A stretch of 64,000 bases of DNA from Anaerolineales bacterium (GTDB lineage Bacteria > Chloroflexota > Anaerolineae > Anaerolineales > E44-bin32). The stretch spans positions 138,283 through 202,282 of the forward strand of contig DAOULU010000006.1 of NCBI GenBank assembly GCA_034417075.1. Reading direction: 5' to 3'. A program made the translations under genes and the position numbers. Each line of letters starts with the position of its first letter. Position 1 is the stretch's first letter. The notes below the pieces were generated by a model. That model worked only from the letters and a program-made list of their open reading frames with translations. It had not been told where the DNA came from and ran no database searches. Shown here piece after piece: positions 6,168 to 28,809 of the stretch.

Positions 6168-6407
6168 GTGCTTCTCCGACGTTATCGTTCGGTAAATAAG
6201 ATTTGTGATCCCCAGGCACGAGGTAAAAAAACACCTGGGGATCCTCGGTTTTCCGAGCCGAACTGCACAATAAAATGTATTTTACCCCATGATGATAAGC
6301 ATATTTTCAGTTGTGACAACCATCACGAATAAGGATGACATTCACGACTGATATAGGACCACTTGGGTCTGTATCATCTAATGTAGGGAGTAGCGGAGGT
6401 TTGTAGA

Positions 6408-7847: not shown

Positions 7848-8009
7848 TTCATCATCCATAAGCCGCTCTAAATCCAGACGCGCGGGTTTCTCTACATTCC
7901 CTTTCGATCCTCAAAAGGCTTCGTTGCTTTTCGCTGCGGGGAAGATCGCCTGCGTATTGAATGAATCGAAGGCCGATATAATCGGACCGGCGATTCTCCT
8001 AGGAAAGAT

Positions 8010-13106: not shown

Positions 13107-15743
13107 ATGAAGCAATATTCACTCCTCATACAACTGCTCCTCTTATCTACTGTTGTCGTGATGGCTGCAGCATTCACTCCGATCCCGGCTAACGCAAATG
13201 GTGATTGGATCGTGGTTAACACAGAAAACGATATGGACGATGGCGTCTGTGACAATACTCATTGTTCTCTCCGCGAAGCTATCAACCACGCCAACCTTCT
13301 TCCAGGGAAGCAAGGGATTTCCTTCAATATCCCGAATTCCAATCCCTTCGCCATTATCCAGGCGTGCGGTCCACTGCCAGATATCACGGACCCGGTCCTC
13401 ATCGACGGTACGTGGCCGCTCGGACCGAATGCGCCCCCCCGAGTCGTGATCCGACCCGACAAGAGACGAGAATGCCCCATAACTCCTCCCAGCCATGGAT
13501 TCTGGATCGTCGCTAATAACGTCACGATCCGCAACCTCAGCATGGTCAATTTCTTCAGCTTTCAGGCATTGGTATCCGGCGCCATCATCGTCGATACTGG
13601 AGCAAATGCAGTCATCGAAAACAACCTGCTCGGCATCTACCCCACCGGTTTCGTTCAAGGCAATTACAACGCCATTTATTTGAATGACGATCACCACACT
13701 GTACGGGACAATGTAATCTCCGGTAACTGGAATGGCATCCAGGTTCGCGGCGCGGATGTAACCATCCAGGGGAATTTTATCGGCACCGATATCTCCGGGA
13801 CTACAAGTAATTTTTCTCTACGCAATGCAATTGGAGTGTTTTTAACACTTTGGAGTGAGGCGAGTGTCATCGGTGGCGTCAATCCCGGTGAGATGAATTT
13901 GATCTCCAACAACGGAACCGGTATCGATGTCACATCCTCCCATAACACGATAATTGGGAATCAGATCGGAACGGACATTTCTGGAACTCTGGATCTGGGA
14001 AATTCCAATGGGATCATCATAACAGGACCCCGCAATACCATCGGTGGTGACCTGCCTGGAGAGGGCAATCTGATATCAGGTAATTCCATGGCAATTAGCA
14101 TCGGCACTGCCGGGGATAACAATATTATTCAAGGCAACTTGATCGGCACCGACTTCAGCGGCACCCAGCCCCTGGCAAATGCACAAGATAATTATCGCGG
14201 CATGGTTATCTTAGGTCAGGACAATTTGGTCGGCGGACTCAATGCTGGCGAGAACAATCTGATCGCCTACATTATTCACGAAGGCATTGAATTCGGAATG
14301 GATGCCAGCGACAATCAAATCCGCGGGAACACGATCATCCATAACGAACTCGGTGTGCTTGTTAAAACAGATCTCTGGGACACCGCGTTGAGAAACACAC
14401 TGACACAAAATGAGATTCACTCCAACTCTGGGTTGGGAATCGATCTCGAACCAGCCGGTGTTTCACCTAACGACCCCGGCGACACGGACAACGGCGGGAA
14501 TACGGTGCTCAACTTCCCGGAATTCAGTGTCAGCATGAATGCTGCCGCAGGAACGGCATGCCCCGAGTGTGTCGTTGAGCTCTTCTTTTCCGACAATGAC
14601 CCTTCAGGGTACGGCGAAGGTGAAACATTCATCGACAGCACCATTGCCGATACAAACGGCAACTTCATGATCCCATTAAATCTACCCATCTCCGGCTGTT
14701 CCCGTTTTTCCGCCACAGCGACGGACCTCCTGGGAAACACCTCCGAGTTTTCCGAAAACGTGGAGTTTGGTTTTTGTCTGGCGGTTGATCCCTGGGTGAT
14801 TCTCACTCCCTTGGTTGCTTTTGGGTTAAGCCTGGGAATCGGCTTCTTTGTTGGACGAAAACCCAACATCAATGGGCGCACAGCACTCGCTGCAGCCGGC
14901 GCTGCTGGTTTCGCTCTCGCGGGGACACTGTTTGTGATCTTGAGAGGACCCTCCGAACTTCCTCCACAGGGATCCGAAGACTCCGAAGTTTGGTCCAGAC
15001 TGCAATCCTGCAGTGAATATCTCGAACCGGATAGTATATCCCCCACCGAAGGGATGCTTTTCGAGCTGGAAGACGACCCCCTGTTCACCTGGGCTCCGCT
15101 CGACAACCTACCCCCGGGTTCGATCCGCTGGACGGTTGAACTGGCGAAACTTTCGGATTCACCGGAAAGCCAGAGCACGAGCGAGGCTCATCTGGCATTT
15201 TCGACATTCGGCATTCAACCCGATCCCGCAACAATCTTTAAATGGCGCCTCAGCGGAGAATTAGCCGATAAGGACGGTGGTGAATGGCGCTTCTTCTGCT
15301 CGCCCACAGACTGGCTGCCGTTTCAGATCGGCTTGCTTCCGGTCGTAAAGGCACCCTCCGATACACCCGAACCGTCACCCACACCCACTCCGACTCCAAC
15401 TTCTCAGTATTGCGTCTATACGGCGATCGAAAACGCCAATTGCCGCAGCAGTGATTACAAAGAATCGGAGCAAATCGCCATCCTCATGCAAGGTGAAAGT
15501 GCAGAACTCTTGAGCCTCAATCCCGAATTCACCCATGGACAGTTTTTACTCGATCAGGAGTTATGCTGGATCTGGCTCGGTTTGTTGGATGGGCCCGAAA
15601 ATCCCTTCGGCACGTGCAGCGTGCCGATCATCGATCCCGCACCGGCTTGCACGTCGGAACTGGATGAGCAAGCCTGTATACTCGCCGGCGGACAGATCAG
15701 TGAAACGCGCACGACAGCACCTTACTGCGTCTGCCCGGATTGA
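13107..15743 (+). CDS. Surface protein paralog 1 of 4: signal peptide, CSLREA motif, parallel beta-helix repeats, internal TM hairpin, C-terminal 8-Cys domain
   Basis: 878 aa. Signal peptide MKQYSLLIQLLLLSTVVVMAAA, VVNTENDMDDGVCDNTHCSLREAINHAN, many NxIxGNxIGTDxSGT repeats, GIDLEPAGVSPNDPGDTDNGGNTVLNFP, ATATDLLGNTSEFSEN. Two hydrophobic helices flank RKPNINGR. PT linker, then the Cys-rich end ..YCVCPD. Confidence 0.9.
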   Translation: MKQYSLLIQLLLLSTVVVMAAAFTPIPANANGDWIVVNTENDMDDGVCDNTHCSLREAINHANLLPGKQGISFNIPNSNPFAIIQACGPLPDITDPVLIDGTWPLGPNAPPRVVIRPDKRRECPITPPSHGFWIVANNVTIRNLSMVNFFSFQALVSGAIIVDTGANAVIENNLLGIYPTGFVQGNYNAIYLNDDHHTVRDNVISGNWNGIQVRGADVTIQGNFIGTDISGTTSNFSLRNAIGVFLTLWSEASVIGGVNPGEMNLISNNGTGIDVTSSHNTIIGNQIGTDISGTLDLGNSNGIIITGPRNTIGGDLPGEGNLISGNSMAISIGTAGDNNIIQGNLIGTDFSGTQPLANAQDNYRGMVILGQDNLVGGLNAGENNLIAYIIHEGIEFGMDASDNQIRGNTIIHNELGVLVKTDLWDTALRNTLTQNEIHSNSGLGIDLEPAGVSPNDPGDTDNGGNTVLNFPEFSVSMNAAAGTACPECVVELFFSDNDPSGYGEGETFIDSTIADTNGNFMIPLNLPISGCSRFSATATDLLGNTSEFSENVEFGFCLAVDPWVILTPLVAFGLSLGIGFFVGRKPNINGRTALAAAGAAGFALAGTLFVILRGPSELPPQGSEDSEVWSRLQSCSEYLEPDSISPTEGMLFELEDDPLFTWAPLDNLPPGSIRWTVELAKLSDSPESQSTSEAHLAFSTFGIQPDPATIFKWRLSGELADKDGGEWRFFCSPTDWLPFQIGLLPVVKAPSDTPEPSPTPTPTPTSQYCVYTAIENANCRSSDYKESEQIAILMQGESAELLSLNPEFTHGQFLLDQELCWIWLGLLDGPENPFGTCSVPIIDPAPACTSELDEQACILAGGQISETRTTAPYCVCPD

Positions 15744-15835
15744 AATACGCAGACGTAGGGAACGATGGACTCCGAAGCGGGCATTTCCTCACTGGGGAGG
15801 TGTTCGAAAGCAAGTCAGAAGGTTTGGAGATGAAA

Positions 15836-18565
15836 ATGAATAAGAAGCGGATCTTGTACCTTACCCTCGCCGTAACACTGTCGCTCTTCGCCCTCGTCAT
15901 GCAGCCCATGGCTTCCGGCTACGCCGGAGGGGGCATTATCGAGGTCAACACGATAGACGACACCGACGACGGCGTCTGCGATGCGGCACACTGCTCGCTG
16001 CGCGAGGCGATCAACTGGGCCAACACCATGGCCGGTACACCGACGATCACCTTCGATATCGCCGGTTCCGGCCCGCACGTCATCGACCTGTGCCATGCGC
16101 TGCCGCAGCTGACCAGTTCGGGCACGACCATCGACGGCACCACAGAACCGAGCTACACCGGAACCCCCGTTGTCGTCGTGCACCCGGCATTTCTTTCCAA
16201 TACCCCGCCGCCGCTGACCCACGTCCCGCCGTGTATTCCGCCTTCGGTCGGTCTGTGGATCGAAACCGACGACATCACCGTGAGAGGCTTGAGCATCGTC
16301 GGTTTTCGCCAGACATGGCCGGCGATCGCCGCCGGGATCGTGGTCGCCAACGGCAGCAACAACCTTATCGATGCAAATTACATCGGTCTGGACGCCAGCG
16401 GCTCACCGGACGGTAACCGCGACGGGATTCTCCTCGGTGCAACCGGCCAAGAGGTTCGTCACAACACCATCTCCGGCAACGACACCGGCATCCACGTCCG
16501 CGCCGGCGAACAAACAATAAACGCTAACCGCATCGGCACGGATTTCTCCGGCAGCACGAGCGGAACCGGAATGGGCAACTACCGCGGTATCCGTATCGAG
16601 CCGGCCGCGGATGCCAACCACATCGGATCCTCCGATCCCATACATAAGAACGTAATCTCCGGCAATACCGCCGTCGGGATCGAGGTGGAATCCGCCGACA
16701 ACATTATCCAGGGTAACTACATCGGCTGCAACATCAGCGGCGATACCGCATTGGGCCAACAGGAAGGTGTGGTGCTCGGAGGCAACAGCAATCTTCTCGG
16801 TGGGAATAATGCCGGTGATGGCAACCTGATCTCCGGAAACGACATCGATGGCGTGATCGTTGGTGGAAGCGGTCACCAAATCCTAGGCAACACGATCGGA
16901 GCAGACATCAACGGCCTCCCATTGGGAAATCAAAATGGCATCTTCAGCATACAAAGTGACAATGTCATCATCGGCACAAACGCCACTGCCTCTGGCAACC
17001 TGATCGCGCATAACAGCTTACATGGCGTGATGCTCTTGGCGAGATCCAAAACTTACCACATCGCCGGCAACACGATCACCCAGAATGGTGGTGACGGCAT
17101 TATATTGGGAACATTTTCCATGAGTCCCGATGTCCCCGAGCAAATCACCATCAACCGCAACAGCATATACGATAACGGAGGCCTGGGGATCGACCTTTAT
17201 CCAGCCGGTGTTACACCCAACGACCCGGGCGATGCGGATTCAGGCCCCAACACGCTGCTCAATTTCCCCGAGCTCAGCCAGGTGACGTCCACCAATGCAC
17301 AGGGAACCGTCTGCGCTAGCTGCCGTGTGGAGGCTTTCATCGCCGACGGCGATCCCACAGGATACGGCGAAGGCATGACCTTCGTCGGGGAAGCGTTCGC
17401 TGACTCCTCCGGCAGCTTGAGCCTTCCACTCGACGTGAACCTGGTTTCCACCTGCGATCTGATCACGACGCGAGCGACAGACGGGGCCGGCAACAGTTCC
17501 GAATTCTCGGAAAACATGCGCGTTTCGCCCTGCTTCACGCTACGTCGGCCGTGGTTATTTGCACCACCCATCCTGCTGGGTCTGCTGGGGTTGCTCGGAG
17601 GCCGCCGCGCAGGACGCGGCAAACCCGGGCTGGCTTCCGCCGCGGGCGGCGCTGCAATCGGCGTCGGGATCGGCGGCGGACTCATCCTCCTAGCGATCGT
17701 ACTGCCCTTTGTGCACATCGAAAAACCACAGGAAGACGTAGGCTTACCCGCCGTGCAGCAGCCCTGCGATCGTTTCCTCGATCCGGCCGGGCTCTCGCCT
17801 GCCGATGGATCGATATTCGAGATCGATGACAACGGCTGGGAATTTACTTGGAGTCCATCACCCGAGATGCCAGATGGAGAGTTCCGCTGGCTCGTCGAGC
17901 TGGCGTCAGCGGACGGCAGCATACAGCAATTGACGACCACCGGAAATTCGCTGCCCTTCCTGTCCTTCGATACTGAAATCTCACAAGGCGCCGTGTTCTC
18001 CTGGCGCCTCAGCGCCGAACAGGCCATCCCCGGTACGGACCGCTGGGAGCCCTTCTGTCGGCAGTTCGCTTGGCACACCTTCCAGTTCGGCGAGCGCCCA
18101 CCGCTCAACGCCCCACCCTGGACGCCCGACGAGTGGAGTGAACCCGAAGACACGCCGACACCAACTTCAACTCCCACAGAAACTCCAACGCCGACTCCCG
18201 AGGAATTGGTTTGTGTGTACGAGGCGCTGCAGAATTCAAACTGCCGCGCCAGCGACTACGCAGAAGCGTTACAAATTTCGATCCTCATGCAGGGCGAGAC
18301 GGCCGAACTGCTAGCCTTGAACCCCGAGTTCTCCTACGGCCAATTCAACCTCGGCCAGGGCGCGTGTTGGATTTGGCTTGGCTTGCTGGACGGACCGGAA
18401 AATCCATTCGATACCTGTGACGTACCGGTCGTCGATCCGCCCTCACCGCCTACGGAGACACCGCCCGCCTGCACACCGGACCTGGATGAAGAAGCGTGTG
18501 TGCTGAGTGGTGGCACGTGGTCGGAGGGCGTGAGTCGAGCGCCCTATTGTGTGTGTCCCGAGTGA
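15836..18565 (+). CDS. Surface protein paralog 2 of 4 (same architecture)
   Basis: Colinear with paralog 1 (HCSLREAINWAN, GIDLYPAGVTPNDPGDADSGPNTLLNFP, GNSSEFSEN, loop GGRRAGRGKPG, end YCVCPE). GGAG lies 6 nt before ATG 15836. ATG 15830 and the TTG-extended ORF from 15740 are less likely starts. Confidence 0.88.
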   Translation: MNKKRILYLTLAVTLSLFALVMQPMASGYAGGGIIEVNTIDDTDDGVCDAAHCSLREAINWANTMAGTPTITFDIAGSGPHVIDLCHALPQLTSSGTTIDGTTEPSYTGTPVVVVHPAFLSNTPPPLTHVPPCIPPSVGLWIETDDITVRGLSIVGFRQTWPAIAAGIVVANGSNNLIDANYIGLDASGSPDGNRDGILLGATGQEVRHNTISGNDTGIHVRAGEQTINANRIGTDFSGSTSGTGMGNYRGIRIEPAADANHIGSSDPIHKNVISGNTAVGIEVESADNIIQGNYIGCNISGDTALGQQEGVVLGGNSNLLGGNNAGDGNLISGNDIDGVIVGGSGHQILGNTIGADINGLPLGNQNGIFSIQSDNVIIGTNATASGNLIAHNSLHGVMLLARSKTYHIAGNTITQNGGDGIILGTFSMSPDVPEQITINRNSIYDNGGLGIDLYPAGVTPNDPGDADSGPNTLLNFPELSQVTSTNAQGTVCASCRVEAFIADGDPTGYGEGMTFVGEAFADSSGSLSLPLDVNLVSTCDLITTRATDGAGNSSEFSENMRVSPCFTLRRPWLFAPPILLGLLGLLGGRRAGRGKPGLASAAGGAAIGVGIGGGLILLAIVLPFVHIEKPQEDVGLPAVQQPCDRFLDPAGLSPADGSIFEIDDNGWEFTWSPSPEMPDGEFRWLVELASADGSIQQLTTTGNSLPFLSFDTEISQGAVFSWRLSAEQAIPGTDRWEPFCRQFAWHTFQFGERPPLNAPPWTPDEWSEPEDTPTPTSTPTETPTPTPEELVCVYEALQNSNCRASDYAEALQISILMQGETAELLALNPEFSYGQFNLGQGACWIWLGLLDGPENPFDTCDVPVVDPPSPPTETPPACTPDLDEEACVLSGGTWSEGVSRAPYCVCPE

Positions 18566-18647
18566 GAGGCTGCATGCGCATTCAGCGAACGGGAATTTCC
18601 GCAGTGAATAGACACGTGAAACCATCCTGCCCCGTAGGAGGTGCAAG

Positions 18648-21509
18648 ATGAATTCTCGATGGATGAAAAAGCTTGGATTGTGCGTATTGAGCACGTTGTG
18701 GCTCTTGATGTTCACCACACCTATGGCGACACAGGCTGGTGGTGGCGTGTTCGTCGTCAACACCACCGACGATCTGGACGACGGCACCTGTGACGCCACA
18801 CACTGCTCGCTGCGCGAAGCGATCAACGCGGTCAACACCTATGCGGGCACGCAGTACATCTACTTTGATATCCCCGGTCCAGGACCGCACGAGATCATGC
18901 TATGCTCGATGCTTCCATCCTTGAGCGACGACGGAACGTTGATCGACGGCACTTCGGAGCCCGATTATGGCGGCACGGTACCTGTGGTCGTGATCAAGCC
19001 GGGGATATTCAACGTGTCTTCCTATCCTGGCTGCACGCCACCACCCATCGGGATCTGGATCGCCGCCAGCGACATAACCGTGACCGGCCTGAGCATCATC
19101 GGTTTCAGGAGTCCTTCCGCATCCATCGCCGGCGGGATCGTGACTCACATGGGCTCGAACGTCACCATCCAGTGGAACTACATCGGCCTGGATCCCTCCG
19201 GAACTCCCGTCGGGAATCGAGACGGGATCCTGATAGGCTCCGAGGCGTCGCAGATCTATTCCAACCGCATCTCGGGCAACGTCATCGGCATTCACGTCTT
19301 CCGCAGCGACCACATCATCCGCTTGAACTACATCGGAACCGATCCCACGGGCACGTCGACCAGTCCTACGCTGAAAAATTCCGTCGGCATCCTGGTGGAC
19401 AATCCTTCTAGCAACGTGCATATCGGAGGCCCGAATCCCGCCTGGATGAACCTCATTTCGGGCAACGACACGGGCGTCCAAGTCGTTACGGACGGTAACT
19501 TCGTGACCAACAATCGCATCGGCGCAGACGCCAGCGGCAGCGCAGGCTTGGGCAATGACACCGGCGTATGGGTCACGGGCAACGGGAACCAAATCGAAGG
19601 CAATCAGGTCAGTGACAGCCAGATCGGCGTGCTGCTGGCCGGAAACAATAATCAAGTCTCCGGCAACTTCATTGGTACGGACGCAAGCGGCGACCTGGCG
19701 TTAGGCAACGACACCGGCGTCCACATCATCGGCAGTGATAACGTCATCGGCGGCGAGATTCCGATCATGCTCGTGCCGGGCAGCACGGCAGGAAACATCA
19801 TCTCCGGAAATGACACGGGCATCTTCCTCGGCCCGAACGCACAGAACAACTACATTAAAGGCAACAAGATCGGTGCCGGCAACAGCCCCGACTCGAGTCT
19901 GCCCAACACTACAGGCATCCTGCTCGATGGCGCCGACAACAACACGATCGGAGGTATCTATCTACCCATGGAAGCCAACTGGGTGATGCACAATATCCAG
20001 GACGGCATCCAGTTCATCACCACCGCCAGCGACAACCTGGTTCAAAACAATTACATCGCCTGGAACGACCGGGGCATCACCGCCGGCGCCACGACCGGTA
20101 CGTCGATCCAGAATACCTTTCACTACAATAACATCTACTATAACGATCAACTCGGTATCGACCTCTTCCCCTGGGGCGTGACCCCCAATGATCCGGGTGA
20201 CGCTGACAGCGGCGCCAATAATCTACAAAATTTCCCCGTGATCAGTTCGGCTACGACCACGACAGCTCAGGGGACCGCCTGTCTGGGCTGCACGGTGGAG
20301 ATTTTCGAAAGCGAAGAGGATCCCTCCGGATACGGTGAGGGCATATCACCTATCGGTGAAAGCCTTACTGACTCCTCAGGAAATTTCAGCATCAGTGTCG
20401 ATCCGCTCTCTACCGCAGGTGTCTGTGATTACGTAACCGCCACGGCGACCGACGCAAACGGCAACACCTCCGAATTTGCAGAGAACTTCCTGATCGGACC
20501 GTGCTTCACGTTCTCACCCCAACTTTTACTCTTCCTGGGTGTGGTTTTCGTGTTCGGTGGTGGGGCCGCCGGCGGGAGGCTCGGACGCGGTCGCGGCACG
20601 CGGCCAGGCCTGGGAACCGCTGCTGGCGCCGCGCTGGGCGGCGTGATCGGTGCCGGTCTGCTCCTCGCAACCTCCTTCATTCCAATTTTCCGTCTACCAC
20701 CAGAAGAGGAACATGTGGTCTCCGATGGCCTGACAGCGCTCGTCCCCTCCTGTAATGCCTACCTCGATCCGCAGGCATTCGTGCCGCAAGATGGCGCGAT
20801 CGTGCTCGACGAAAACTTCGACTTCGCATGGTCCTGGTTGAACGAGCCTTCGAACGGACGGTTCCGCTGGAGCCTGGATTTGAACGGGCCCGACGATTCC
20901 GGCCAGCAAACGACGGAGGATACTTCGCTTCCCTTCACTGCGTTTGGTTTCGCGGTCGACGACGGGGATCGATTCATCTGGCGACTGACTGGCGAGCAAT
21001 TCGACGACTCTTCCGCAGAATGGAAACCCTTCTGTGCACCATCGGCGTGGCTAACGTTCCAAATCGGACTTTCACCATTGCTGGCGCCACCGTGGACACC
21101 GGAAACGCCGGAAGAACTACCTCCGACGCCCACGAGCACACCCGAGTCTCCTGCGGGAGTCTGTCTGTACACAGCGGTACGTAACAGCAACTGCCGCGCC
21201 AGCGACTATCCGGAGTCGCTGCAGATCGATATCCTCATGCAGGGGGAATCGGCCGAACTCCTGGCCTTGAATCCCGAGTTCACCCACGGTAAATTCGAGC
21301 TCGATCACGGTCAGTGCTGGATCTGGCTGGGATTGCTGGAAGGTCCCGATAACCCATACGGCACGTGCAACGTCCCGGTCATCGATCCGCCGCCGCCACC
21401 GACCGCAACGCCACAAACCTGCACTGCGGATTTAGACGAGGACGCTTGCATCGCAAGTGGAGGCACCTGGTCGGTGACGGGCGCTGCGGGATGTGTATGC
21501 CCGGAGTGA
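18648..21509 (+). CDS. Surface protein paralog 3 of 4 (same architecture)
   Basis: 953 aa. SD AGGAGGTG upstream. HCSLREAINAVN, GIDLFPWGVTPNDPGDADSGANNLQNFP, ATATDANGNTSEFAEN, loop GGRLGRGRGTRPG, end GCVCPE. Confidence 0.9.
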   Translation: MNSRWMKKLGLCVLSTLWLLMFTTPMATQAGGGVFVVNTTDDLDDGTCDATHCSLREAINAVNTYAGTQYIYFDIPGPGPHEIMLCSMLPSLSDDGTLIDGTSEPDYGGTVPVVVIKPGIFNVSSYPGCTPPPIGIWIAASDITVTGLSIIGFRSPSASIAGGIVTHMGSNVTIQWNYIGLDPSGTPVGNRDGILIGSEASQIYSNRISGNVIGIHVFRSDHIIRLNYIGTDPTGTSTSPTLKNSVGILVDNPSSNVHIGGPNPAWMNLISGNDTGVQVVTDGNFVTNNRIGADASGSAGLGNDTGVWVTGNGNQIEGNQVSDSQIGVLLAGNNNQVSGNFIGTDASGDLALGNDTGVHIIGSDNVIGGEIPIMLVPGSTAGNIISGNDTGIFLGPNAQNNYIKGNKIGAGNSPDSSLPNTTGILLDGADNNTIGGIYLPMEANWVMHNIQDGIQFITTASDNLVQNNYIAWNDRGITAGATTGTSIQNTFHYNNIYYNDQLGIDLFPWGVTPNDPGDADSGANNLQNFPVISSATTTTAQGTACLGCTVEIFESEEDPSGYGEGISPIGESLTDSSGNFSISVDPLSTAGVCDYVTATATDANGNTSEFAENFLIGPCFTFSPQLLLFLGVVFVFGGGAAGGRLGRGRGTRPGLGTAAGAALGGVIGAGLLLATSFIPIFRLPPEEEHVVSDGLTALVPSCNAYLDPQAFVPQDGAIVLDENFDFAWSWLNEPSNGRFRWSLDLNGPDDSGQQTTEDTSLPFTAFGFAVDDGDRFIWRLTGEQFDDSSAEWKPFCAPSAWLTFQIGLSPLLAPPWTPETPEELPPTPTSTPESPAGVCLYTAVRNSNCRASDYPESLQIDILMQGESAELLALNPEFTHGKFELDHGQCWIWLGLLEGPDNPYGTCNVPVIDPPPPPTATPQTCTADLDEDACIASGGTWSVTGAAGCVCPE

Positions 21510-21582
21510 AACCGATTCGAGAAGATAACGCCATGGAGTCGATCGAAAACCGCAGCCAGAGATTGATGTAAGGGGTACTTTG

Positions 21583-24183
21583 ATGAGAACTCGCAAACAT
21601 GTTTCCCGAGCCTGGCTAGCCCTGTGCCTGCTGGCGATGATGACACTTGCTTTTCCGATCACCGCGGAGGCCAGCACCTTCGTCGTCAACACGGTCGACG
21701 ATCTCGACGACGGAAACTGCGACGCCGATCATTGCTCTCTGCGCGAGGCGATCAATGCCGCCAATGCCAACCCCGGTGCGGACACGATTGCCTTCGACAT
21801 CTTCGGCGCCGGGCCACACGTGATCAAACTGTGCAGCCTGCTGCCCATACTCACCGACGGCGGGACGACGATTGACGGCACGACGGAACCCAGTTATGCC
21901 GGGACGCCCGTCGTTACTTTAACGCCCTCTGCGGATCCGAGTTGTACCCGACCGCACATCGGCCTATGGATCCAATCCGACGGGAACGTGATCCGTGGGC
22001 TGCACACCATCGACTTCATGCATCCAACACTGCAGCACGAATCCGCCATCTACATCGAGCGCGGCGACGGAAACCTGATCGAGTTAAATCACATCGGCTA
22101 TCAACCTACCTGTTCGCTTTTCAACACACAATACGGTGTCCGCATCGACATGGACGCCGGAAACCAGCGCATTCTCAAAAACGTATTCAACTGTAACGGA
22201 ACGGCAATCGATATCTGGGCTGGCAGCCACGTGATCCGGGACAACCTCATCGGCGTCGATCCCTCCGGCACTACGGCCATCCTCAACGGTCTGGGCATCT
22301 ACGTCTACGAAACCGCCCACGGCTCGACCATTCAGGATAACGTGGTATCGGGCAACATCAGCGCCATGGTAGTCAATTCGGACGACAACAAGATCCTGGG
22401 AAACCGCGTTGGTACGGATTGGTCGACGAACATAGCCATCCCCAATCAAGGCGGCATCAAGGTGAACGGCGATCACAACCGCGTCGGCGGCACGAATCCC
22501 GGCGAGGCAAACATCATCGCCGCCAACACCAGCATTGGTCTTGATCTGTACTGCGGCGCGGAATACAACCAGGTGTATGGCAATATCATCGGCACCAATC
22601 TTTCGGGAACCATCATCATGGGCAACCAGTACGGTGTCACCATTATGGGGAACACGAACATCATCGGGGGTATCGGCTCAGGCGAAGCAAACCGCATCCT
22701 CTTCAGCCAGGAAGCCGGGCTCAGCTTGTACGCTTTGGCGCACAAAAACCGCATCATTGGAAACGAGATCGCTTACGGCCACACGCAGGGCATTCTGGGA
22801 ACGAGTTCGATGGGCTTTCCCGAATCCAACACCTTCAGCCGAAACAGCATCCATCACAATCGTGCCCTGGGAATCGATTTGGAACCTGCGGGCGTCACGC
22901 CAAATGATCCGGGAGACGCGGATTCCGGCCCCAACACACTGCTGAACTTTCCCGTGCTCCAATCCGCCAACGTGAACACGGCCGAAGGAGACGCCTGCCC
23001 GGGCTGTACCGTGGAGATCTTCATCGCCGATTCGGGCAAAGGCGCATTCGGCGAAGGTATGAACTTCGCGGGAAGCGGCAACGCCGATCCGAGCGGTCAT
23101 TTCTCGATCCCGTTAAGCGGGGTCGGTTTCTGCGATCCGCTCACCGCCACCGCCACTGACGGCGCAGCCAACACCTCCGAGTTTGCCAAGAACATCCTGG
23201 CCAGCTGCCTGACGCTCGTATTCCCTTGGCCCGATCTCCTTTTGCTGGCGTTCATTTTTGCTGGCGCCCTGGGCAACGGGCGTCGCGGCCGAGGTAGATC
23301 GCCGGGTCGATATGCCGCCATCGGCGGCGCTGCTGGCGCAGTATTCGGCATCGCCCTGCTGACCCTGGGCAGTGCGCTTCCTAACATGCACTTGGAATTG
23401 CTCCCTCCAAAAGGGGAACCGAAGAGTGAACCACTTTGCAGCGAGTTGCTTCTACCGGATGGGTACGCTCCACCGGCAGGCGCCGTGTTCCAAACCAGCG
23501 AAGACCCATTGCTTTCCTGGACGCCGGGACCCGGCGCCGCCGACGGGATCGTCTGGCAGGTAGAACTCAGTGCACCTGACGGCTCAATTTTGAATCAAAC
23601 GACTCAGGAGACAAGCATCGCCTTCAGCAGCTTCATGTTCCCCACTCAACCAGGATTTTACCGCTGGCGCATCACCGCCAGAGAGGGCAATGCCCCAGGA
23701 GCCCTGGGGAAAGCCTTATGTTCACCGACATCGTGGATGCCGCTTTCCTTCGAAGGACCACAGCGCGAGGAAACACCGGAAGAAACGCCGACATCGACCC
23801 CCACGCCGACTCCCACAGAAGAGACGTCAGCATGTGTCTACACCGCGCTGCAAAATGCCAACTGCCGGGAGAGCGACTACGTCGAATCGGATCAGATGGC
23901 CATTCTCATGCAGGGCGAAAGCGCCGAACTGTTGGCGTTGAACCCCGAGTTTACCCACGGTGAGTTCGAGGTCGATCAGCACCAATGCTGGATCTGGCTC
24001 GGGTTGCTGGACGGTCCTGAAAACCCATACGGCACATGCGACATTCCAGTCGTTGATCCGCCTCCACCGCCGACCGCGACGCCACAGATTTGCACAGAGG
24101 ATTTGAACGAGGAAGATTGCGTGGCCAGCGGCGGTGTATGGTCCGAGGGAATCACGGATCGCCTCTACTGCATCTGTCCTTAA
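21583..24183 (+). CDS. Surface protein paralog 4 of 4 (same architecture)
   Basis: HCSLREAINAANANPGADTIAFDI, GIDLEPAGVTPNDPGDADSGPNTLLNFP, ATATDGAANTSEFAKN, loop NGRRGRGRSPGR, end YCICP. ATG at 21583 (TTG at 21580 also possible). Confidence 0.9.
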   Translation: MRTRKHVSRAWLALCLLAMMTLAFPITAEASTFVVNTVDDLDDGNCDADHCSLREAINAANANPGADTIAFDIFGAGPHVIKLCSLLPILTDGGTTIDGTTEPSYAGTPVVTLTPSADPSCTRPHIGLWIQSDGNVIRGLHTIDFMHPTLQHESAIYIERGDGNLIELNHIGYQPTCSLFNTQYGVRIDMDAGNQRILKNVFNCNGTAIDIWAGSHVIRDNLIGVDPSGTTAILNGLGIYVYETAHGSTIQDNVVSGNISAMVVNSDDNKILGNRVGTDWSTNIAIPNQGGIKVNGDHNRVGGTNPGEANIIAANTSIGLDLYCGAEYNQVYGNIIGTNLSGTIIMGNQYGVTIMGNTNIIGGIGSGEANRILFSQEAGLSLYALAHKNRIIGNEIAYGHTQGILGTSSMGFPESNTFSRNSIHHNRALGIDLEPAGVTPNDPGDADSGPNTLLNFPVLQSANVNTAEGDACPGCTVEIFIADSGKGAFGEGMNFAGSGNADPSGHFSIPLSGVGFCDPLTATATDGAANTSEFAKNILASCLTLVFPWPDLLLLAFIFAGALGNGRRGRGRSPGRYAAIGGAAGAVFGIALLTLGSALPNMHLELLPPKGEPKSEPLCSELLLPDGYAPPAGAVFQTSEDPLLSWTPGPGAADGIVWQVELSAPDGSILNQTTQETSIAFSSFMFPTQPGFYRWRITAREGNAPGALGKALCSPTSWMPLSFEGPQREETPEETPTSTPTPTPTEETSACVYTALQNANCRESDYVESDQMAILMQGESAELLALNPEFTHGEFEVDQHQCWIWLGLLDGPENPYGTCDIPVVDPPPPPTATPQICTEDLNEEDCVASGGVWSEGITDRLYCICP

Positions 24184-24240
24184 CCCGCAGGATCGGGTGG
24201 GAGGTTGAAACTTGAAGCCGATTTGTACGCCACGAGCAAC

Positions 24241-24269
24241 TTGTCGAAACCAACAGGTCAATGTAGCAT
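24241..24269 (+). promoter_or_regulatory. Putative sigma-70 promoter of lipoprotein cassette A
   Basis: TTGTCG, 17 nt, TAGCAT. The same geometry and nearly the same sequence recur upstream of cassette B. Confidence 0.45.
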
Positions 24270-24352
24270 CCTGATACGGACTTACTGCCATTCCCAGTCG
24301 ATTTCATGGCCGGTATACGGAGAAGAAGACATTAAATTGAAGGAGAACCAAA

Positions 24353-25498
24353 ATGAGCCTTCCCTCAAGAATAAAATCAACCACACTCGTTTTCATACTG
24401 GTGACGAGCATCATCCTTGCGGCATGTCATTTCCCAGGAATGGGCCCCACGCCGGACTTGTTCGCCACCTCCGCTGCAGAAACCGTTTCCGCACGGCTTA
24501 CGCAACCAGTGGAACCCGGCACAGATGAGACAACAGAGCCCGAGCCGCCCGTGATCGCCACGACCGAAGCCCCACCGACAGAGGAACCCCCTACGCCAAC
24601 GACTACGCTCACCCCCACGATCACGCAGACCACAATCCCCTGCGATCGCGCCAGTTTCGTTTCGGACGTTACCATCCCCGACGGGGAGGAATTAGAACCG
24701 AACGAGAGTTTCACCAAAACCTGGCGGTTGAAAAATAACGGTTCCTGCACCTGGACCTCCAGCTACGCGCTCACTTTCGACAGCGGTGATTCGATGAGCG
24801 GACCTGCATCCAAACAGCTTACCAGTGGAACTGTAGCACCTGGCGCCACAATGGACGTCTCCGTCAATCTGACGGCGCCGAGTTCGCCGGGAACGTACAA
24901 AGGTTACTGGAAACTGCGCAACGGATCGGGAGTGAATTTCGGAATTGGAACTGGCGGCGTAAATCCTTTCTGGGTTGAAATCAAGGTCGTTCCCAACACA
25001 ACCACGGTTACCATTCCCATGAAAGAAATGGAAAGCGGACAAGTGCAGTCCACCGGCTCGACAGGCTTTGGAAGGTACGTGGGGGATAGCCACACGAATA
25101 CGTCCACACAAGCCTTCGTCAGCTTCGATATAAGTGCGATACCTTCGGACGCCATCATCACGGAGGTCACGATAAAGATTAGTAATTTCAACGATACCGG
25201 AGATCCATTTGGCGATTTGGGACCTATGTTCATCTACAAAGATGATTACGGTAGCTTGGATTCGACCGACTATGTAAGCAGCACTCCAGGGACAGGTCGG
25301 CTTATCGCCTGGAATTCAACCTCTCAATTGGGAACCACGATCCCCGACAACGACATGGTCAATGCGGTTCAGAGTAAAGTGGGTAGCAGTCGCTTTAGAG
25401 TTCGATTCCAATTCGCCAACGACACGAACAATGATAACGGCGCCGACTATCTGGAACTGGTCTCGATTGTGATCAAGGTAACCTACTACACGCCATAG
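24353..25498 (+). CDS. Lipoprotein with NBR1-like Ig domain and C-terminal beta-rich domain (cassette A)
   Basis: Lipobox ILAAC, PT/E-rich linker. The CDRASFVSDVTIPDGEELEPNESFTKTWRLKNNGSCTWTSSYALTFDSGD...PGTYKGYWKLRN pattern is typical of bacterial 'next to BRCA1'-type Ig-like domains. SD GAAGGAG upstream. Confidence 0.85.
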   Translation: MSLPSRIKSTTLVFILVTSIILAACHFPGMGPTPDLFATSAAETVSARLTQPVEPGTDETTEPEPPVIATTEAPPTEEPPTPTTTLTPTITQTTIPCDRASFVSDVTIPDGEELEPNESFTKTWRLKNNGSCTWTSSYALTFDSGDSMSGPASKQLTSGTVAPGATMDVSVNLTAPSSPGTYKGYWKLRNGSGVNFGIGTGGVNPFWVEIKVVPNTTTVTIPMKEMESGQVQSTGSTGFGRYVGDSHTNTSTQAFVSFDISAIPSDAIITEVTIKISNFNDTGDPFGDLGPMFIYKDDYGSLDSTDYVSSTPGTGRLIAWNSTSQLGTTIPDNDMVNAVQSKVGSSRFRVRFQFANDTNNDNGADYLELVSIVIKVTYYTP

Positions 25499-25517
25499 GC
25501 GCATTACGCAAGTTTAT

Positions 25518-25557
25518 AAAATCCCCGCCATTCTCATCCACGGCAGGGATTTTTTTA
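25518..25557 (+). terminator. Rho-independent terminator of cassette A
   Basis: ATCCCCGCC (25521-29) pairs with GGCAGGGAT (25542-50) with one mismatch, followed by a T6 run. Confidence 0.7.
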
Positions 25558-25727
25558 TTGCCGCCGAAGGTATTGCCAGCGGCCTTGAAGGCCATATCTC
25601 AGCGATCCGCTCACCTCCGCTGACGCAGACGGTGCTGCCAACACAATCTCCCATTTTGTATAAGCCCATGATACACAAGATTGGTTGTCCGGCAGGAATG
25701 CAGTACGGCCTATGCGCAAAGGGCCAC

Positions 25728-25756
25728 TTGTCAAAATCCGCAGGTCGCTGTAGCAT
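25728..25756 (+). promoter_or_regulatory. Putative sigma-70 promoter of lipoprotein cassette B
   Basis: TTGTCA, 17 nt, TAGCAT. Homologous to 24241-24269, with the shared block CAGGTCnnTGTAGCATCCTGrTAC. Confidence 0.45.
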
Positions 25757-25831
25757 CCTGGTACTTGCAGCCTGCCATGTGCAACGCCCCAGGCGCACGG
25801 ATAAGTAGATTTCAAAACGAAGGAGTTCGAG

Positions 25832-26980
25832 ATGAGCCCTCCGGCACGATTGAGAACAACACTCATTTTAATGCTCGCGATCAGTATCGTCCTATCGGCG
25901 TGCAATTTCCCCGGTATGGGTGCCACACCGGATCTGTTCGCCACATCTGCAGCGCAAACCGTCGCCGCCCGTCTCACCCAACCAGCGGGACCGGGCAATG
26001 ATGGGACCACGCCACCCGAGCCACCGCAGATTGCAACAACCGAAGCCCCTCCAACGGAGGAACCACCTACGCCCACGTCGACCATAACGCTGACGCCCAC
26101 GATCACGCAGACCACAATCCCCTGCGATCGCGCCAGCTTTATCACGGACGTCACCATCCCCGACGGAGAAGAATTGGAACCGAACGAGAGCTTCACCAAG
26201 ACCTGGCGCCTGAAAAACAACGGCTCCTGCACCTGGACCTCCAGCTATGCGCTCATTTTCGACAGCGGCGATTCCATGGGAGGACCCGCATCCAAACAGC
26301 TTACCAGCGGGACCGTTGCACCCGGTGCCATTATGGACGTCTCCGTCAACTTAACGGCGCCCAGTTCGCCGGGTACCTACAAGGGATACTGGAAACTGCG
26401 CAACGGTTCCGGGGTAAATTTCGGCATCGGTACCGGCGGCACCAATCCGTTCTATGTCGAAATCAAAGTCGTGCCCAACACGGCCACGACTACGGTTCCT
26501 CTCGTCGTTGGCGAAAGCGGTCAGGTCACGAAAAGCACCTATATCTCCGGGGATAAAATTGCCGGAGATAACGGATCGAACGATTCGTCCCAGGCTTTCC
26601 TTAGCTTCAACATCACCGGAATCCCGTCGGATGCCGTCATTACGGAAGTCGTCATCGATCTCGGTGACTTCACCGTGATCGGGACGCCGTTCTCAGCTTT
26701 GGGGCCACTGTTTATCTACAAGGATGATTATGGCGGTTTGGATGCCTCCGACTTCGTCAACAGCACACCATCTTCCGGCCGACTCATAGCCTGGAATTCA
26801 ACATCAAGCTTGGGGAACGCCGTCTCGGATAACGACATGGTCAACGCCCTGCAAACCAAAGTGGGATCGAGTCGCTTCAGATTGCGTCTGCAGTTCAACA
26901 AACAAACCGACAACGATGGCGCAAGCGATCACCTGACTTTCAACACTGTGATCCTCAAAGTCACCTACTACACGCCCTGA
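25832..26980 (+). CDS. Lipoprotein with NBR1-like Ig domain and C-terminal beta-rich domain (cassette B, paralog of 24353-25498)
   Basis: Lipobox VLSAC. The N-terminal two thirds are near-identical to cassette A and the C-terminal third is clearly more diverged. SD GAAGGAG upstream. Confidence 0.85.
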   Translation: MSPPARLRTTLILMLAISIVLSACNFPGMGATPDLFATSAAQTVAARLTQPAGPGNDGTTPPEPPQIATTEAPPTEEPPTPTSTITLTPTITQTTIPCDRASFITDVTIPDGEELEPNESFTKTWRLKNNGSCTWTSSYALIFDSGDSMGGPASKQLTSGTVAPGAIMDVSVNLTAPSSPGTYKGYWKLRNGSGVNFGIGTGGTNPFYVEIKVVPNTATTTVPLVVGESGQVTKSTYISGDKIAGDNGSNDSSQAFLSFNITGIPSDAVITEVVIDLGDFTVIGTPFSALGPLFIYKDDYGGLDASDFVNSTPSSGRLIAWNSTSSLGNAVSDNDMVNALQTKVGSSRFRLRLQFNKQTDNDGASDHLTFNTVILKVTYYTP

Positions 26981-27003
26981 CCGCACGTAGAAATTAGCGA
27001 TGA

Positions 27004-27040
27004 AAAATCCCCGCGAATCACCCAACGTCGCGGGGATTTT
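27004..27040 (+). terminator. Rho-independent terminator of cassette B
   Basis: Perfect 12-bp stem AAAATCCCCGCG / CGCGGGGATTTT with a 13-nt loop. The stem is related to the cassette A terminator stem. Confidence 0.7.
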
Positions 27041-27117
27041 CGCTCTCCAGTGAAGATCATATTGTGTATAAGTTAATCGCATTTCAAACGGTTGAATTGG
27101 CAGTTTTAAAGAACGCG

Positions 27118-27126
27118 TGATAGATT
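27118..27126 (+). promoter_or_regulatory. Extended -10 element (TGaTAGATT) 6 nt upstream of ATG 27133, suggesting a leaderless start
   Basis: TGATAGATTcaagttATG. No SD between the -10 element and the start codon. Confidence 0.4.
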
Positions 27127-27132
27127 CAAGTT

Positions 27133-28809
27133 ATGGTTGCGAATGTGCTCGTAGTTGAAGAGACGGAAGAATTCGGGTCTTTGATCCGTAACGCGCTCGA
27201 AGACACCGGGCGGTATCAGGTGTCACTGGCGATGAACGCTGACGAGGCGATCGAGATCGGAGATCGGGAAAATATCCACTTGCTAATCATCGACTTCGAT
27301 CTCTCCGAAGCCGATGCACCGGCCTGTATTCAACGCATCCAATCCACCAATCCGGACATGGCCATTATCGCCATTCCGCCCAACAACGATCCACACGATC
27401 CTGCCTTTTCAAGTCTCTCAATCCGCGGCGTGCTGACGAAGCCTTTTTACCTTCCCGAACTCAACGAGATCGTCTCCGCAGCGATAGATCTGCCAACGCA
27501 GGCTGTGGAAACGGATCAGATCCGGGAATCCATCCCGCAGGAACCCCCTTTCAGCGAGGCCGCGGAACCACCAACGCCCTGGCCTAACGACGTGGATCAA
27601 GCCACGCAGCACCTCGCCAGGGTATGCGGCGATACGTCTGCCGAAGCGTTGATCCTCTTGCATCACGGCCAGCGATGGGCACAAACGGGTGGAATTACAC
27701 CGGATCAAGCCGAAGGACTTGCGGTCAAGATTGCTGAAATTGGAGTCGGCGCTGGCGCCCGTGGAGCAATCACCACCCTGACTCGTTTACCAGGCACAAA
27801 GCGGGATTGCATCCTGTATGCCAATGGTCTGATACCGAATTGGATTTTGGCGCTGGTTTATCCCTCCGGCACATCCTTCGGGATCATCCGCCGCCAGGCT
27901 GGGCACACCGCGGACAGACTCAAATACATGGACCTGGATGATCACGAGGAAGACCTCCCTCCCATACCGACGTCCGCGCCCGATACCGCACCGATTTCAG
28001 CTCGAGACGAAGAAGATACATCGTTCGATGAAATCTTCGGTGTGGAGCCAGATGCCCAGGAAATTCCGTTTTTCGAAGATCTCGACCTGCCTCCCAAACC
28101 GATCCCTGCGCCCGATACCGCACCGATTTCTGCTCGAGACGAAGAAGATACATCGTTCGATGAAATCTTCGGTGCGGAGCCAGATGCCCAGGAAATTCCG
28201 TTTTTCGAAGATCTCGATCTTCCCCCTCCGGAGCCGGATGAAACGCCAGCGAAGGTTGACGAGGACCGGATCGAAGAAGCGGACACCGCTGCAGCGATTC
28301 CGGGGGATTGGGTGCCGGACAAACCCAAACCTGAATCCCACCTGCCTTTCCTCGAAGAAGGCGCCTTCCCGAGTACGGACTCCGCATCAACAGCGCTGGA
28401 GCCCATCCCGCTGCCCGACGCGGAGTACTACCTCCCCGTCACTGCAGTGCTTGTGCCTCGGTTCCCGGAACACCGCCTGACGGGTCCCCTTGTGGAAAAT
28501 CTACAGGAATGGGTGGTTCGCCTTTGCCTGGCGTGGGATTGGCGCGCGGATGAAGTGTCGATCGAACCCGATTATCTCTGCCTGACGATGAGCATTTCCC
28601 CGGAGACGGCGCCTTCGAACGCGGTTCTCCGGCTTCGGGATGATCTATCACAGCGGATACTCAGCGCATTTCCCGAATTTGTAGACGACCTGCCTTCCCG
28701 ACGTTTTTGGGCGCGCAGCTACCTGCTGATCACCGGCGGACCACCGCCAGCGAAACGACTGCAAGAGTTCGTCGAAACCACACGCAAGAGCCAAGGGATC
28801 GAAATCTAA
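27133..28809 (+). CDS. Receiver (REC)-like domain, acidic repeat linker, C-terminal IS200/TnpA (Y1 transposase)-like domain lacking the HUH motif
   Basis: N-terminus VLVVEETEEF...HLLIIDFDL...LTKPF resembles a CheY-like receiver, with EE in place of the DD pocket. The C-terminus aligns by eye to IS200 TnpA: YLPVTAVLVPRF (YHIVFxxKYR), PDYLCLTMSISPE (xDHxHxLxxxPP), RFWARSYLLITGG (FWxRGYYxxTVG). Confidence 0.7.
   Translation: MVANVLVVEETEEFGSLIRNALEDTGRYQVSLAMNADEAIEIGDRENIHLLIIDFDLSEADAPACIQRIQSTNPDMAIIAIPPNNDPHDPAFSSLSIRGVLTKPFYLPELNEIVSAAIDLPTQAVETDQIRESIPQEPPFSEAAEPPTPWPNDVDQATQHLARVCGDTSAEALILLHHGQRWAQTGGITPDQAEGLAVKIAEIGVGAGARGAITTLTRLPGTKRDCILYANGLIPNWILALVYPSGTSFGIIRRQAGHTADRLKYMDLDDHEEDLPPIPTSAPDTAPISARDEEDTSFDEIFGVEPDAQEIPFFEDLDLPPKPIPAPDTAPISARDEEDTSFDEIFGAEPDAQEIPFFEDLDLPPPEPDETPAKVDEDRIEEADTAAAIPGDWVPDKPKPESHLPFLEEGAFPSTDSASTALEPIPLPDAEYYLPVTAVLVPRFPEHRLTGPLVENLQEWVVRLCLAWDWRADEVSIEPDYLCLTMSISPETAPSNAVLRLRDDLSQRILSAFPEFVDDLPSRRFWARSYLLITGGPPPAKRLQEFVETTRKSQGIEI
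27952..28215 (+). repeat. In-frame tandem direct repeat, 2 x 132 bp (44 aa each), plus a partial third start
   Basis: Unit 1 27952-28083 is DLPPIPTSAPDTAPISARDEEDTSFDEIFGVEPDAQEIPFFEDL. Unit 2 28084-28215 is DLPPKPIPAPDTAPISARDEEDTSFDEIFGAEPDAQEIPFFEDL. DLPPPEPD follows. Confidence 0.95.

Follow-up and report, generated by a model that had tools for sequence, protein, structure and literature searches.

The question raised by this locus is how a single duplicated gene came to consist of two halves that resemble each other to such unequal degrees. The locus lies in a 64,000-nucleotide (64-kb) stretch of contig DAOULU010000006.1 (GenBank assembly GCA_034417075.1, positions 138,283 to 202,282) from an Anaerolineales bacterium; this whole stretch is called the window here and is abbreviated W in the names of trees and loci. 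It carries two adjacent lipoprotein genes, A and B, which an earlier note, made from the letters of the DNA, had described as a tandemly duplicated promoter-lipoprotein-terminator cassette whose identity drops abruptly within the gene, implying either gene conversion of the 5' part or diversification of the 3' part. Both processes were found to play a part and that dichotomy is too simple; the main factor in the window is purifying selection of unequal strength on the two halves.

Genes A and B are intact tandem paralogues (Table 1), each provided with its own promoter-like element, Shine-Dalgarno (SD) sequence and hairpin terminator, and the lipobox, Pro/Thr linker, NBR1-like Ig domain (hereafter FW domain) and C-terminal beta-sandwich (hereafter C-domain, or head) noticed earlier are present in both products. 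Identity between the two proteins is 54% over the signal peptide, 85% over the region after the lipobox cysteine and the linker (with one indel of two amino acids (aa)), 94% over the FW domain (7 of 121 positions differ) and 56% over the C-domain (72 of 165 differ), the most divergent stretch being the first ~35 residues of the C-domain (30% identity). The earlier statement that only a handful of positions differ from the linker through the Ig domain holds for the FW domain but not for the linker, where 10 differences were counted. The step itself is real. At the nucleotide level sliding-window identity is not uniform, with 81-90% at nt +241 to +600 and 41-46% at nt +655 to +700, and the drop coincides with the junction between the FW domain and the C-domain.

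The source is a metagenome-assembled genome (MAG) and tandem repeats are prone to misassembly, so that the step might be suspected to stem from a frameshift, from chimeric assembly or from the collapse of a repeat. The chance of such an artefact is negligible: the two open reading frames (ORFs) align end to end without a change of frame, an NCBI assembly contig of 308 kb is recorded as encoding A and B in exactly this form, and the two-gene arrangement together with the identity drop (at nt ~640-670) recurs in four other independent assemblies from different samples. These assemblies, whose loci carry handles such as L001, hold the A-B pair in synteny (L001; L081, with identical genes in L082; L084-86; L087). 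The pair is therefore no product of assembly, and the duplication predates the separation of at least five species-level genomes. The order of the locus in close relatives is beta-helix proteins, A, B, a response-regulator/IS200-like fusion and PolA. A search with the full-length query returned more than 3600 relatives, essentially all of them from Anaerolineales/Chloroflexota MAGs and none with an informative name. The FW domains of close relatives are 89-95% identical to those of both A and B. Their C-domains fall into two types, namely A-type relatives with 74-82% identity to A and 53-58% to B, and B-type relatives with 69-89% identity to B and 51-60% to A.

The two halves of the gene give different phylogenies. 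Monophyly of A and of B was recovered in 0% of the protein trees of the FW domain versus 100% of those of the C-domain, where the A|B split has a bootstrap support of 100%. With outgroups included in the C-domain tree, types A and B each form a clade with 100% support, are probably sisters (51%) and stand on long stem branches. Among 20 sequences, 18 type-diagnostic residues were found in the C-domain and none in aa 1-216; variable positions number 75 in the C-domain versus 20 in the FW domain. Based on a codon alignment of ten genes, one A and one B for each of five genomes, the proportions of nonsynonymous (pN) and synonymous (pS) differences in the C-domain are 0.04-0.15 and 0.34-0.60 within a type (pN/pS ~0.1-0.25), and dN/dS, the ratio of the corresponding substitution rates, is ~0.1-0.2 between orthologues. 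Comparisons across the two types give a pN of 0.23-0.30 and saturation at silent sites. The heads are two old types, each under purifying selection and not currently diversifying.

Positive selection on the C-domain, as might be imposed on a phage receptor, an antigen or the target of an arms-race partner, could be thought to have driven the 3' divergence. The surplus of variable positions in the C-domain and the long stems leading to types A and B would agree with it, and so would the most divergent ~35 residues, which adjoin, in the match to the DNRLRE profile, the ligand-groove region of CBM96, a family of carbohydrate-binding modules (CBMs). Each C-domain type is, however, conserved across the five genomes at the low pN/pS given above, and both types are kept side by side in every genome examined. 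The rate of synonymous substitution (dS) between A and B is saturated in this domain, so that a ratio to the nonsynonymous rate (dN/dS) above 1 is not demonstrable, and what is seen agrees with two functions that parted early and were constrained thereafter. Diversifying selection is regarded as a very improbable cause.

Silent sites of the same codon alignment bear on gene conversion. Differences at fourfold degenerate sites were counted at identical amino acids only; this measure replaces Nei-Gojobori pS, which is inflated where amino acids differ, and a comparison of Nei-Gojobori pS between the gene halves was set aside as biased. Between A and B of the window the fourfold difference is 0.66 in the signal peptide and linker (saturation 0.72), 0.44 in the FW domain (saturation 0.65) and 0.67 in the C-domain (saturation 0.72). 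The separate estimation of dN/dS for the two halves, as proposed earlier, gave dN 0.034, dS ~0.95 and omega ~0.04 for the FW domain, and the saturation of A-B silent sites for the C-domain. Orthologous FW domains differ at 0.28 (WA and L001A) and 0.30 (WB and L001B) of their fourfold sites, and the window paralogues, at 0.44, are not closer to each other than to their orthologues, as concerted evolution would have them. In codons 166-216 pS between A and B is 0.57-0.68 and pN 0.01-0.06, that is, the protein is conserved despite silent turnover, which indicates selection.

These values speak against recent or ongoing conversion in the window genome, homogenising the signal peptide, linker and FW domain, as the main cause of the step. 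Such conversion would account for the complete lack of type-specific residues in aa 1-216, has a demonstrated precedent over exactly this region in locus L081 (see below), and would agree with the lower fourfold divergence of the window FW domain (28 of 64 sites) than of the C-domain (26 of 39; Fisher p = 0.027). A run of 41 identical nucleotides at nt +261 of the window pair was also considered as a conversion tract and rejected, a run of this length being, by estimate, not unusual at ~86% identity with third-position variation. But the silent divergence of signal peptide and linker is close to saturation, that of the FW domain is high, and within the clade of W, L001 and L087 the FW nucleotide tree groups sequences by type (bootstrap 97% for A, 62% for B). 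Recent conversion as the principal cause is thus held to be quite unlikely, and the likeness of the window FW domains is kept mainly by purifying selection. The lower silent divergence of the FW domain leaves room for an old event, and conversion may have occurred in the window lineage long ago.

Elsewhere in the family the 5' half has indeed undergone gene conversion. In locus L081 the fourfold difference between A and B is 0.08 in the signal peptide and linker, 0.13 in the FW domain and 0.67 in the C-domain, and the 5' halves of these paralogues (0.13 and 0.08) are closer to each other than to those of other genomes (0.25-0.48). The converted tract (Table 1) covers ~510 nt (nt +99 to ~+610), is 95-100% identical and contains identical runs of 116, 85 and 65 nt. 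The tree of FW domain and linker unites L081A with L081B (94-100%) and both with L084A and L084B (94-99%), in conflict with the C-domain tree.

The explanation considered probable for the whole is that A and B are two independently transcribed paralogues with a common lipoprotein chassis and different heads, shaped by constraint and occasional conversion. The chassis would begin with a lipid-anchored cysteine and a conserved short helix, followed by a Pro/Thr stalk predicted to be disordered and by an FW Ig domain with a conserved pair of cysteines, and the head would be the 165-aa C-terminal beta-sandwich of the DNRLRE/CBM96-like fold class, of type A or type B. The duplication took place within a sub-clade of the Anaerolineales, before at least five species-level genomes split. 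The heads diverged early, as seen from their long stems and 18 fixed type-specific residues, and have since been held by purifying selection. The chassis, free of type-specific residues, has been kept alike by very strong purifying selection (dN/dS ~0.04) and, in some lineages, by conversion tracts that stop at the boundary between FW domain and C-domain, with no recent conversion in the window genome. As for the proposed function, lipid anchor and stalk would keep both FW domain and head at a distance from the membrane, the FW domain would contact a shared partner so that the chassis serves a common role (e.g., anchoring, spacing or docking), and the two heads would bind two different ligands, most likely glycans of the environment or of the cell envelope.

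The FW domains are the most firmly assigned part of the chassis. The profile PF16158 (N_BRCA1_IG) matches aa 107-212 of A with 101.1 bits and aa 108-213 of B with 95.4 bits (cutoff 28), in both cases over all model positions (1-108 of 108), and is also matched by 67 of 69 relatives. Sequence searches of the PDB with the FW domain retrieved ILRUN (E 2.6e-19, ~32% identity) and NBR1 (E 9e-16), and Foldseek aligned the FW model with 6vhi (E 1.7e-9, TM-score on the target 0.87, root-mean-square deviation (RMSD) 2.1 A, 32% identity) and 4ole (TM-score 0.78). The signature tryptophans are W124, W134, W186 and W207 in A; B has the first three and a tyrosine in the fourth place. Among 40 relatives W124 and W134 are invariant and W186 nearly so. 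The cysteines C97 and C132 of the FW domain are invariant as well, which fits an extracytoplasmic location. In eukaryotes the FW domain is a protein-binding module that binds protein cargo, and bacteria have been noted to have FW domains, no function being given (PMC9233695, PMC9582228). A literature search on bacterial FW/PF16158 lipoproteins found nothing relevant, and no function for any bacterial FW protein.

Both genes probably encode lipid-anchored surface lipoproteins, as judged from their N-termini. The lipobox regions (MSLPSRIKSTTLVFILVTSIILAAC in A and ...ISIVLSAC in B; pattern applied [LVI][ASTVI][GAS]C) follow a basic n-region and a hydrophobic h-region, as checked by eye. Cys25 is invariant in 40 relatives, and weak matches to LPAM_1 were obtained for two relatives only. 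The full-length AlphaFold model (mean predicted local distance difference test (pLDDT) 82) comprises a signal helix (aa 6-25), the second helix and the disordered linker listed in Table 1, and two folded domains. A segment directly after the lipobox (C-N-F-P-G...TPD.FATSAAQTV.A.LTQ) is common to all FW lipoproteins, including those of distant multi-gene arrays, and could act as a sorting or docking signal.

The C-domain was modelled with AlphaFold2 (69 sequences) as a 165-aa two-sheet beta-sandwich with a pLDDT of 96.8. The best Foldseek match was 8wab, a CBM for chondroitin sulfate (E 7e-5, TM-scores 0.59/0.56, probability 1.0), and the CBM96 structure 7vbo was also found (E 2.2e-3, probability 1.0), but with TM-scores of 0.45/0.41 and an RMSD of 7.3 A. 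Other fold neighbours are the prodomains of BMP9/10, PNGase F and the C-terminal shielding domains of tyrosinases; BMP9 prodomain and PNGase F have been reported as structural neighbours of CBM96 too (PMC9971899), the same set as found here. The DNRLRE_dom profile (NF033679; cutoff 34) gave 22.1 bits for A (E 1.3e-4) and 15.1 bits for B, the match being restricted to profile positions 14-61 of 164 around QAFxSFDISxIPxxAxIxxV, and CBM96 (PF24517) gave 13.6 bits against a cutoff of 26; sub-threshold matches to DNRLRE_dom recur in 42 of 69 family members (E <= 0.01). PDB sequence searches with the C-domain, singly or as a family profile, gave no meaningful match, and the FW domain alone yields matches. 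Of the profile matches anticipated in the earlier note, that to N_BRCA1_IG lies well above its cutoff and those to DNRLRE and CBM96 lie below theirs; its guess of a DNRLRE/CBM-like module is supported at the level of the fold, by the predicted structure with its CBM-like neighbours, and by the recurrent sub-threshold signal.

The C-domains are acidic (pI 4.3-4.4; 10 Lys plus Arg versus 17-19 Asp plus Glu), with two basic residues among the first 36. The groove of CBM96 is positively charged, is lined by Lys10/22/25/27/31, Arg36 and Tyr159 and binds acidic polysaccharide (PMC9971899). A basic groove of that kind was not found in the C-domains by a coarse composition test, made with no residue-level structural alignment. 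Given this acidity and the lack of the Lys/Arg-rich stretch with which CBM96 binds alginate, the C-domain is described here as a divergent DNRLRE/CBM96-like beta-sandwich and not as a member of CBM96. A profile search of the full library placed the C-domain module in 1106 cluster representatives. Its partner domains in proteins other than FW lipoproteins are CARDB, PKD, S8 peptidase and invasin-like Ig, each of them an extracellular setting. In P0228 and P0253 it lies near the N-terminus of S8 subtilases of ~1000 aa; other fusions are with CARDB and with PKD plus invasin-like domains, and one protein of 4139 aa has three matched stretches.

On the strength of the modelled fold and the domain architecture, A and B are most likely surface-displayed binding proteins with different ligands, glycans being favoured. 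The C-domain might alternatively be a protein-binding or prodomain-like cap which docks or masks a partner, such as the CSLREA beta-helix proteins encoded nearby or a secreted peptidase, A and B serving different partners. The prodomains and shielding domains among its fold neighbours, its position N-terminal to S8 subtilases in two of ten sampled architectures, its acidity in place of the basic CBM96 groove, the four paralogous beta-helix surface proteins encoded immediately 5' in all close relatives and the protein binding by the eukaryotic FW domain (PMC9233695) all point that way. Its best fold matches are nevertheless CBMs, its sole sequence signal is that of DNRLRE/CBM96, and the more distant L002 has, at the syntenic position, a gene for FW domain plus C-domain but no beta-helix genes. 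A role as a cap is considered rather unlikely, and the binding of two different ligands by the two heads is preferred.

The two genes are probably transcribed independently, each from a putative promoter of its own and up to a putative intrinsic terminator. Conservation of the flanking elements was judged from the alignment of the ten cassettes. The promoter-like element TTGTCR-17 nt-TAGCAT keeps its position in all ten and hardly varies in sequence; its 37-nt conserved form has two sites in the window (0 expected), those of cassettes A and B only. It matches 8-9 of 12 positions of the sigma-70 consensus, the element of gene A, with 8, lying below the cut of a generic scan. That scan of the window for promoters and terminators returned counts equal to the shuffled expectation, flagged the promoter of gene B only and missed both hairpins, whose loops exceed its 8-nt limit; the calls rest on cross-genome conservation for this reason. 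The conserved block further upstream in both cassettes, which the orthologous cassettes share, is possibly an UP element or a regulator site. The SD sequence GAAGGAG and the purine-rich block ACGGAGAAGAAGAT of the 5' untranslated region (UTR) are kept in ten of ten cassettes. So are the terminator hairpins, with folding free energies (dG) from -22 to -35 kcal/mol; their form AAATCCCCGC-N13/14-GCNGGGATTT occurs in the window at those two sites only, that of gene A having a stem of 8+3 bp, a loop of 12 nt and a T7 tract. The matching -35/-10 pair, SD sequence and related stem-loop reported earlier for each unit are thus all conserved across the ten cassettes.

An Rfam scan of positions 24100-27200 (E <= 1) gave no match, hence no known riboswitch or leader, and RNAalifold found no consensus structure in the ten 5' UTRs. 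A candidate stem-loop, CCGGC/GCCAT...ATGGC/GCCGG, was proposed by eye in the 5' UTR of gene A and at equivalent positions of the nine others. It is paired in 79% of the cells versus 16-45% in slid controls, and its covariation is weak, the observed values being reached by 38-91 of 500 shuffles.

Several points weigh against the preferred explanation of a shared chassis with two ligand-binding heads. The promoter and terminator calls stem from conservation, with generic scans at chance level; silent divergence in the window is lower in the FW domain than in the C-domain; and the L081 tract could reflect short-read assembly of repeats, although two assemblies agree on it. The proposed function is read from the fold and the domain architecture; the bit scores of the C-domain lie under the curated cutoffs for DNRLRE and CBM96 (22 versus 34 and 13.6 versus 26 bits), its TM-scores to CBMs are moderate (0.45-0.59), the same fold serves as a prodomain or shielding domain of proteins (BMP9/10, tyrosinase), the acidic pI of ~4.3 is unlike the basic alginate groove of CBM96, and no carbohydrate-active enzyme or transporter is consistently adjacent, the neighbours differing between distant loci.

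Table 1. Positions of the features of cassettes A and B, of neighbouring features in the window and of the conversion tract in a relative (window coordinates unless stated).
Feature	Position	Strand	Remarks
Cassette A, upstream conserved element	24188..24211	+	CAGGATCGG...TGAAAC; ~30-55 nt 5' of the -35 hexamer; alignment conservation
Gene A, promoter-like element	24241..24269	+	-35 TTGTCG, 17-nt spacer, -10 TAGCAT; conservation
Gene A, inferred 5' UTR	24270..24352	+	Purine-rich block ACGGAGAAGAAGA; SD GAAGGAG at 24339-24345
Gene A, candidate 5'-UTR stem-loop	24284-24313		Proposed by eye
Gene A	24353..25498	+	381-aa predicted lipoprotein; intact ORF
Gene A, signal peptide and lipobox LAAC (Cys25)			Alignment; sequence check by eye
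Gene A, conserved post-lipobox segment	24425-24500		AlphaFold: short helix aa 36-49
Gene A, helix and disordered Pro/Thr linker	aa 36-49; aa 50-92		AlphaFold model
Gene A, FW/NBR1-like Ig domain	24641-25000 (aa ~97-216)	+
Gene A, type-A C-terminal beta-sandwich	25001-25495 (aa 217-381)	+
Gene A, intrinsic-terminator-like hairpin	25519..25557	+	Hairpin 25519-25552, then T7; dG -22.8 kcal/mol; conserved in orthologues
Cassette B, upstream conserved element	25677..25700	+	CAAGATTGG...GGAAT; counterpart of 24188-24211; alignment conservation
Gene B, promoter-like element	25728..25756	+	-35 TTGTCA, 17-nt spacer, -10 TAGCAT; conservation
Gene B, inferred 5' UTR	25757..25831	+	SD GAAGGAG at 25819-25825
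Gene B	25832..26980	+	382-aa predicted lipoprotein; intact ORF; lipobox LSAC (Cys24)
Gene B, conserved post-lipobox segment	25901-25979	
Gene B, FW domain	26123-26482 (aa ~98-217)	+
Gene B, type-B C-terminal beta-sandwich	26483-26977 (aa 218-382)	+
Gene B, intrinsic-terminator-like hairpin	27005..27039	+	Perfect 12-bp stem, then TTTT
Four tandem CSLREA beta-helix paralogues	13107-24183	+	878, 941, 953 and 867 aa
Response-regulator/IS200-like Y1 transposase fusion	27133-28809	+	558 aa
Tandem duplication in the fusion gene	27952-28217		132 nt, 2 copies, 94% match
L081 conversion tract (L081 coordinates)	6099-6610 vs 7581-8092		Same genes in L082; starts inside the linker, ends at the FW/C-domain junction

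The four genes upstream of gene A encode tandem paralogues with 39-44% pairwise identity, each with an N-terminal CSLREA motif (TIGR04214) and signals of a right-handed beta-helix (NosD, Beta_helix). They stand directly 5' of the A-B pair in all close relatives and represent a second tandem expansion of surface proteins adjoining it. Downstream, and conserved between gene B and polA in the relatives, lies the gene that joins a receiver domain of the response-regulator type to a Y1 transposase domain resembling that of IS200; its product is longer in the window than elsewhere (514 aa) because of a tandem duplication in the linker. In the more distant locus L002 the interval between a MiaB-like gene and PolA, which flank the locus in both genomes, holds one gene for FW domain plus C-domain, one for an FW domain only and no beta-helix gene. 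A functional link between the A-B pair and these neighbours was judged unsupported, the beta-helix and response-regulator/Y1 transposase genes being clade-specific insertions.

Larger arrays of the same kind, with three to six consecutive genes whose products have the lipobox, Pro/Thr linker and N_BRCA1_IG domain in common but not the C-terminus, occur in many Anaerolineales loci (e.g., L014, L017, L018, L025, L026, L039, L040 and L042, and similarly L053 and L075). Genes for QueG and an ABC ATPase flank the array of L014 (5992-11173). Within this family of constant chassis and variable head, the window pair is a small case of recent duplication. On a more far-reaching conjecture, the pair would represent, in its minimal form, a system of surface display specific to Chloroflexota, in which the constant module is held uniform by selection and conversion because it docks all members of the family to one shared envelope partner, the bacterial FW domain being an extracellular docking module and forerunner of the eukaryotic NBR1 cargo-binding domain; this is thought unlikely.

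The locus offers a clean, checkable example of mosaic evolution in tandem paralogues, one half being frozen by constraint and sometimes homogenised up to the edge of a domain, while the other has separated into two functional types that are both stable. It also brings to notice a family of Anaerolineales surface lipoproteins, abundant and uncharacterised, with a bacterial NBR1 FW domain. The hosts are filamentous, polymer-degrading bacteria of sediments and sludge, and the heads, if they are glycan binders, would bear on how these bacteria attach to substrates or capture them. Current understanding is not challenged, the result being mainly one of annotation and evolution with known domain types; of modest interest are the conversion tract of a sister lineage, which respects the domain boundary, and the abundant, uncharacterised bacterial FW-lipoprotein family.

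Compared with known systems, the window FW domains show clear homology in sequence and fold to the FW structures of human NBR1 (4OLE), ILRUN (6VHI) and C. thermophilum Nbr1 (7VQO). The eukaryotic domain is part of cytosolic autophagy receptors and binds protein cargo, whereas the window domain is predicted to be extracytoplasmic, stands on a lipoprotein stalk, contains the C97/C132 pair and is fused to a beta-sandwich head. With DNRLRE/CBM96 (the alginate-binding module TM6-N4 of lyase Dp0100, 7VBO) the head, as modelled, probably shares the fold class of a two-sheet beta-sandwich, but it is acidic and is not part of an enzyme, whereas CBM96 serves polysaccharide lyases as an accessory module. 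The chondroitinase CBM 8WAB is the best structural match, but with 9% identity, an RMSD of 5.6 A and no detectable sequence homology. SGBP-B of Bacteroides ovatus (6E57) and the Micromonospora sialidase (1W8O/2BZD), which were among the two-domain Foldseek matches to the full-length model (RMSD 14-16 A), have a similar order of anchor or enzyme body, Ig-like spacer and distal beta-sandwich binding domain. The likeness is one of domain order alone, with no sequence relationship, and the window genes lie outside any polysaccharide utilisation locus and belong to Chloroflexota rather than Bacteroidota. The function proposed for A and B would resemble that of the surface glycan-binding lipoproteins of other bacteria. 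A duplicated gene that evolves at different rates in its two halves is an ordinary, well-documented kind of case. With partial concerted evolution of tandem paralogues the family shares the incongruence between half-gene trees, paralogues that are closer than orthologues (in one lineage) and a sharp tract boundary; it differs in that the signal in the window genome is weak or old, the mosaic there arising mostly from differing purifying selection on chassis and head.

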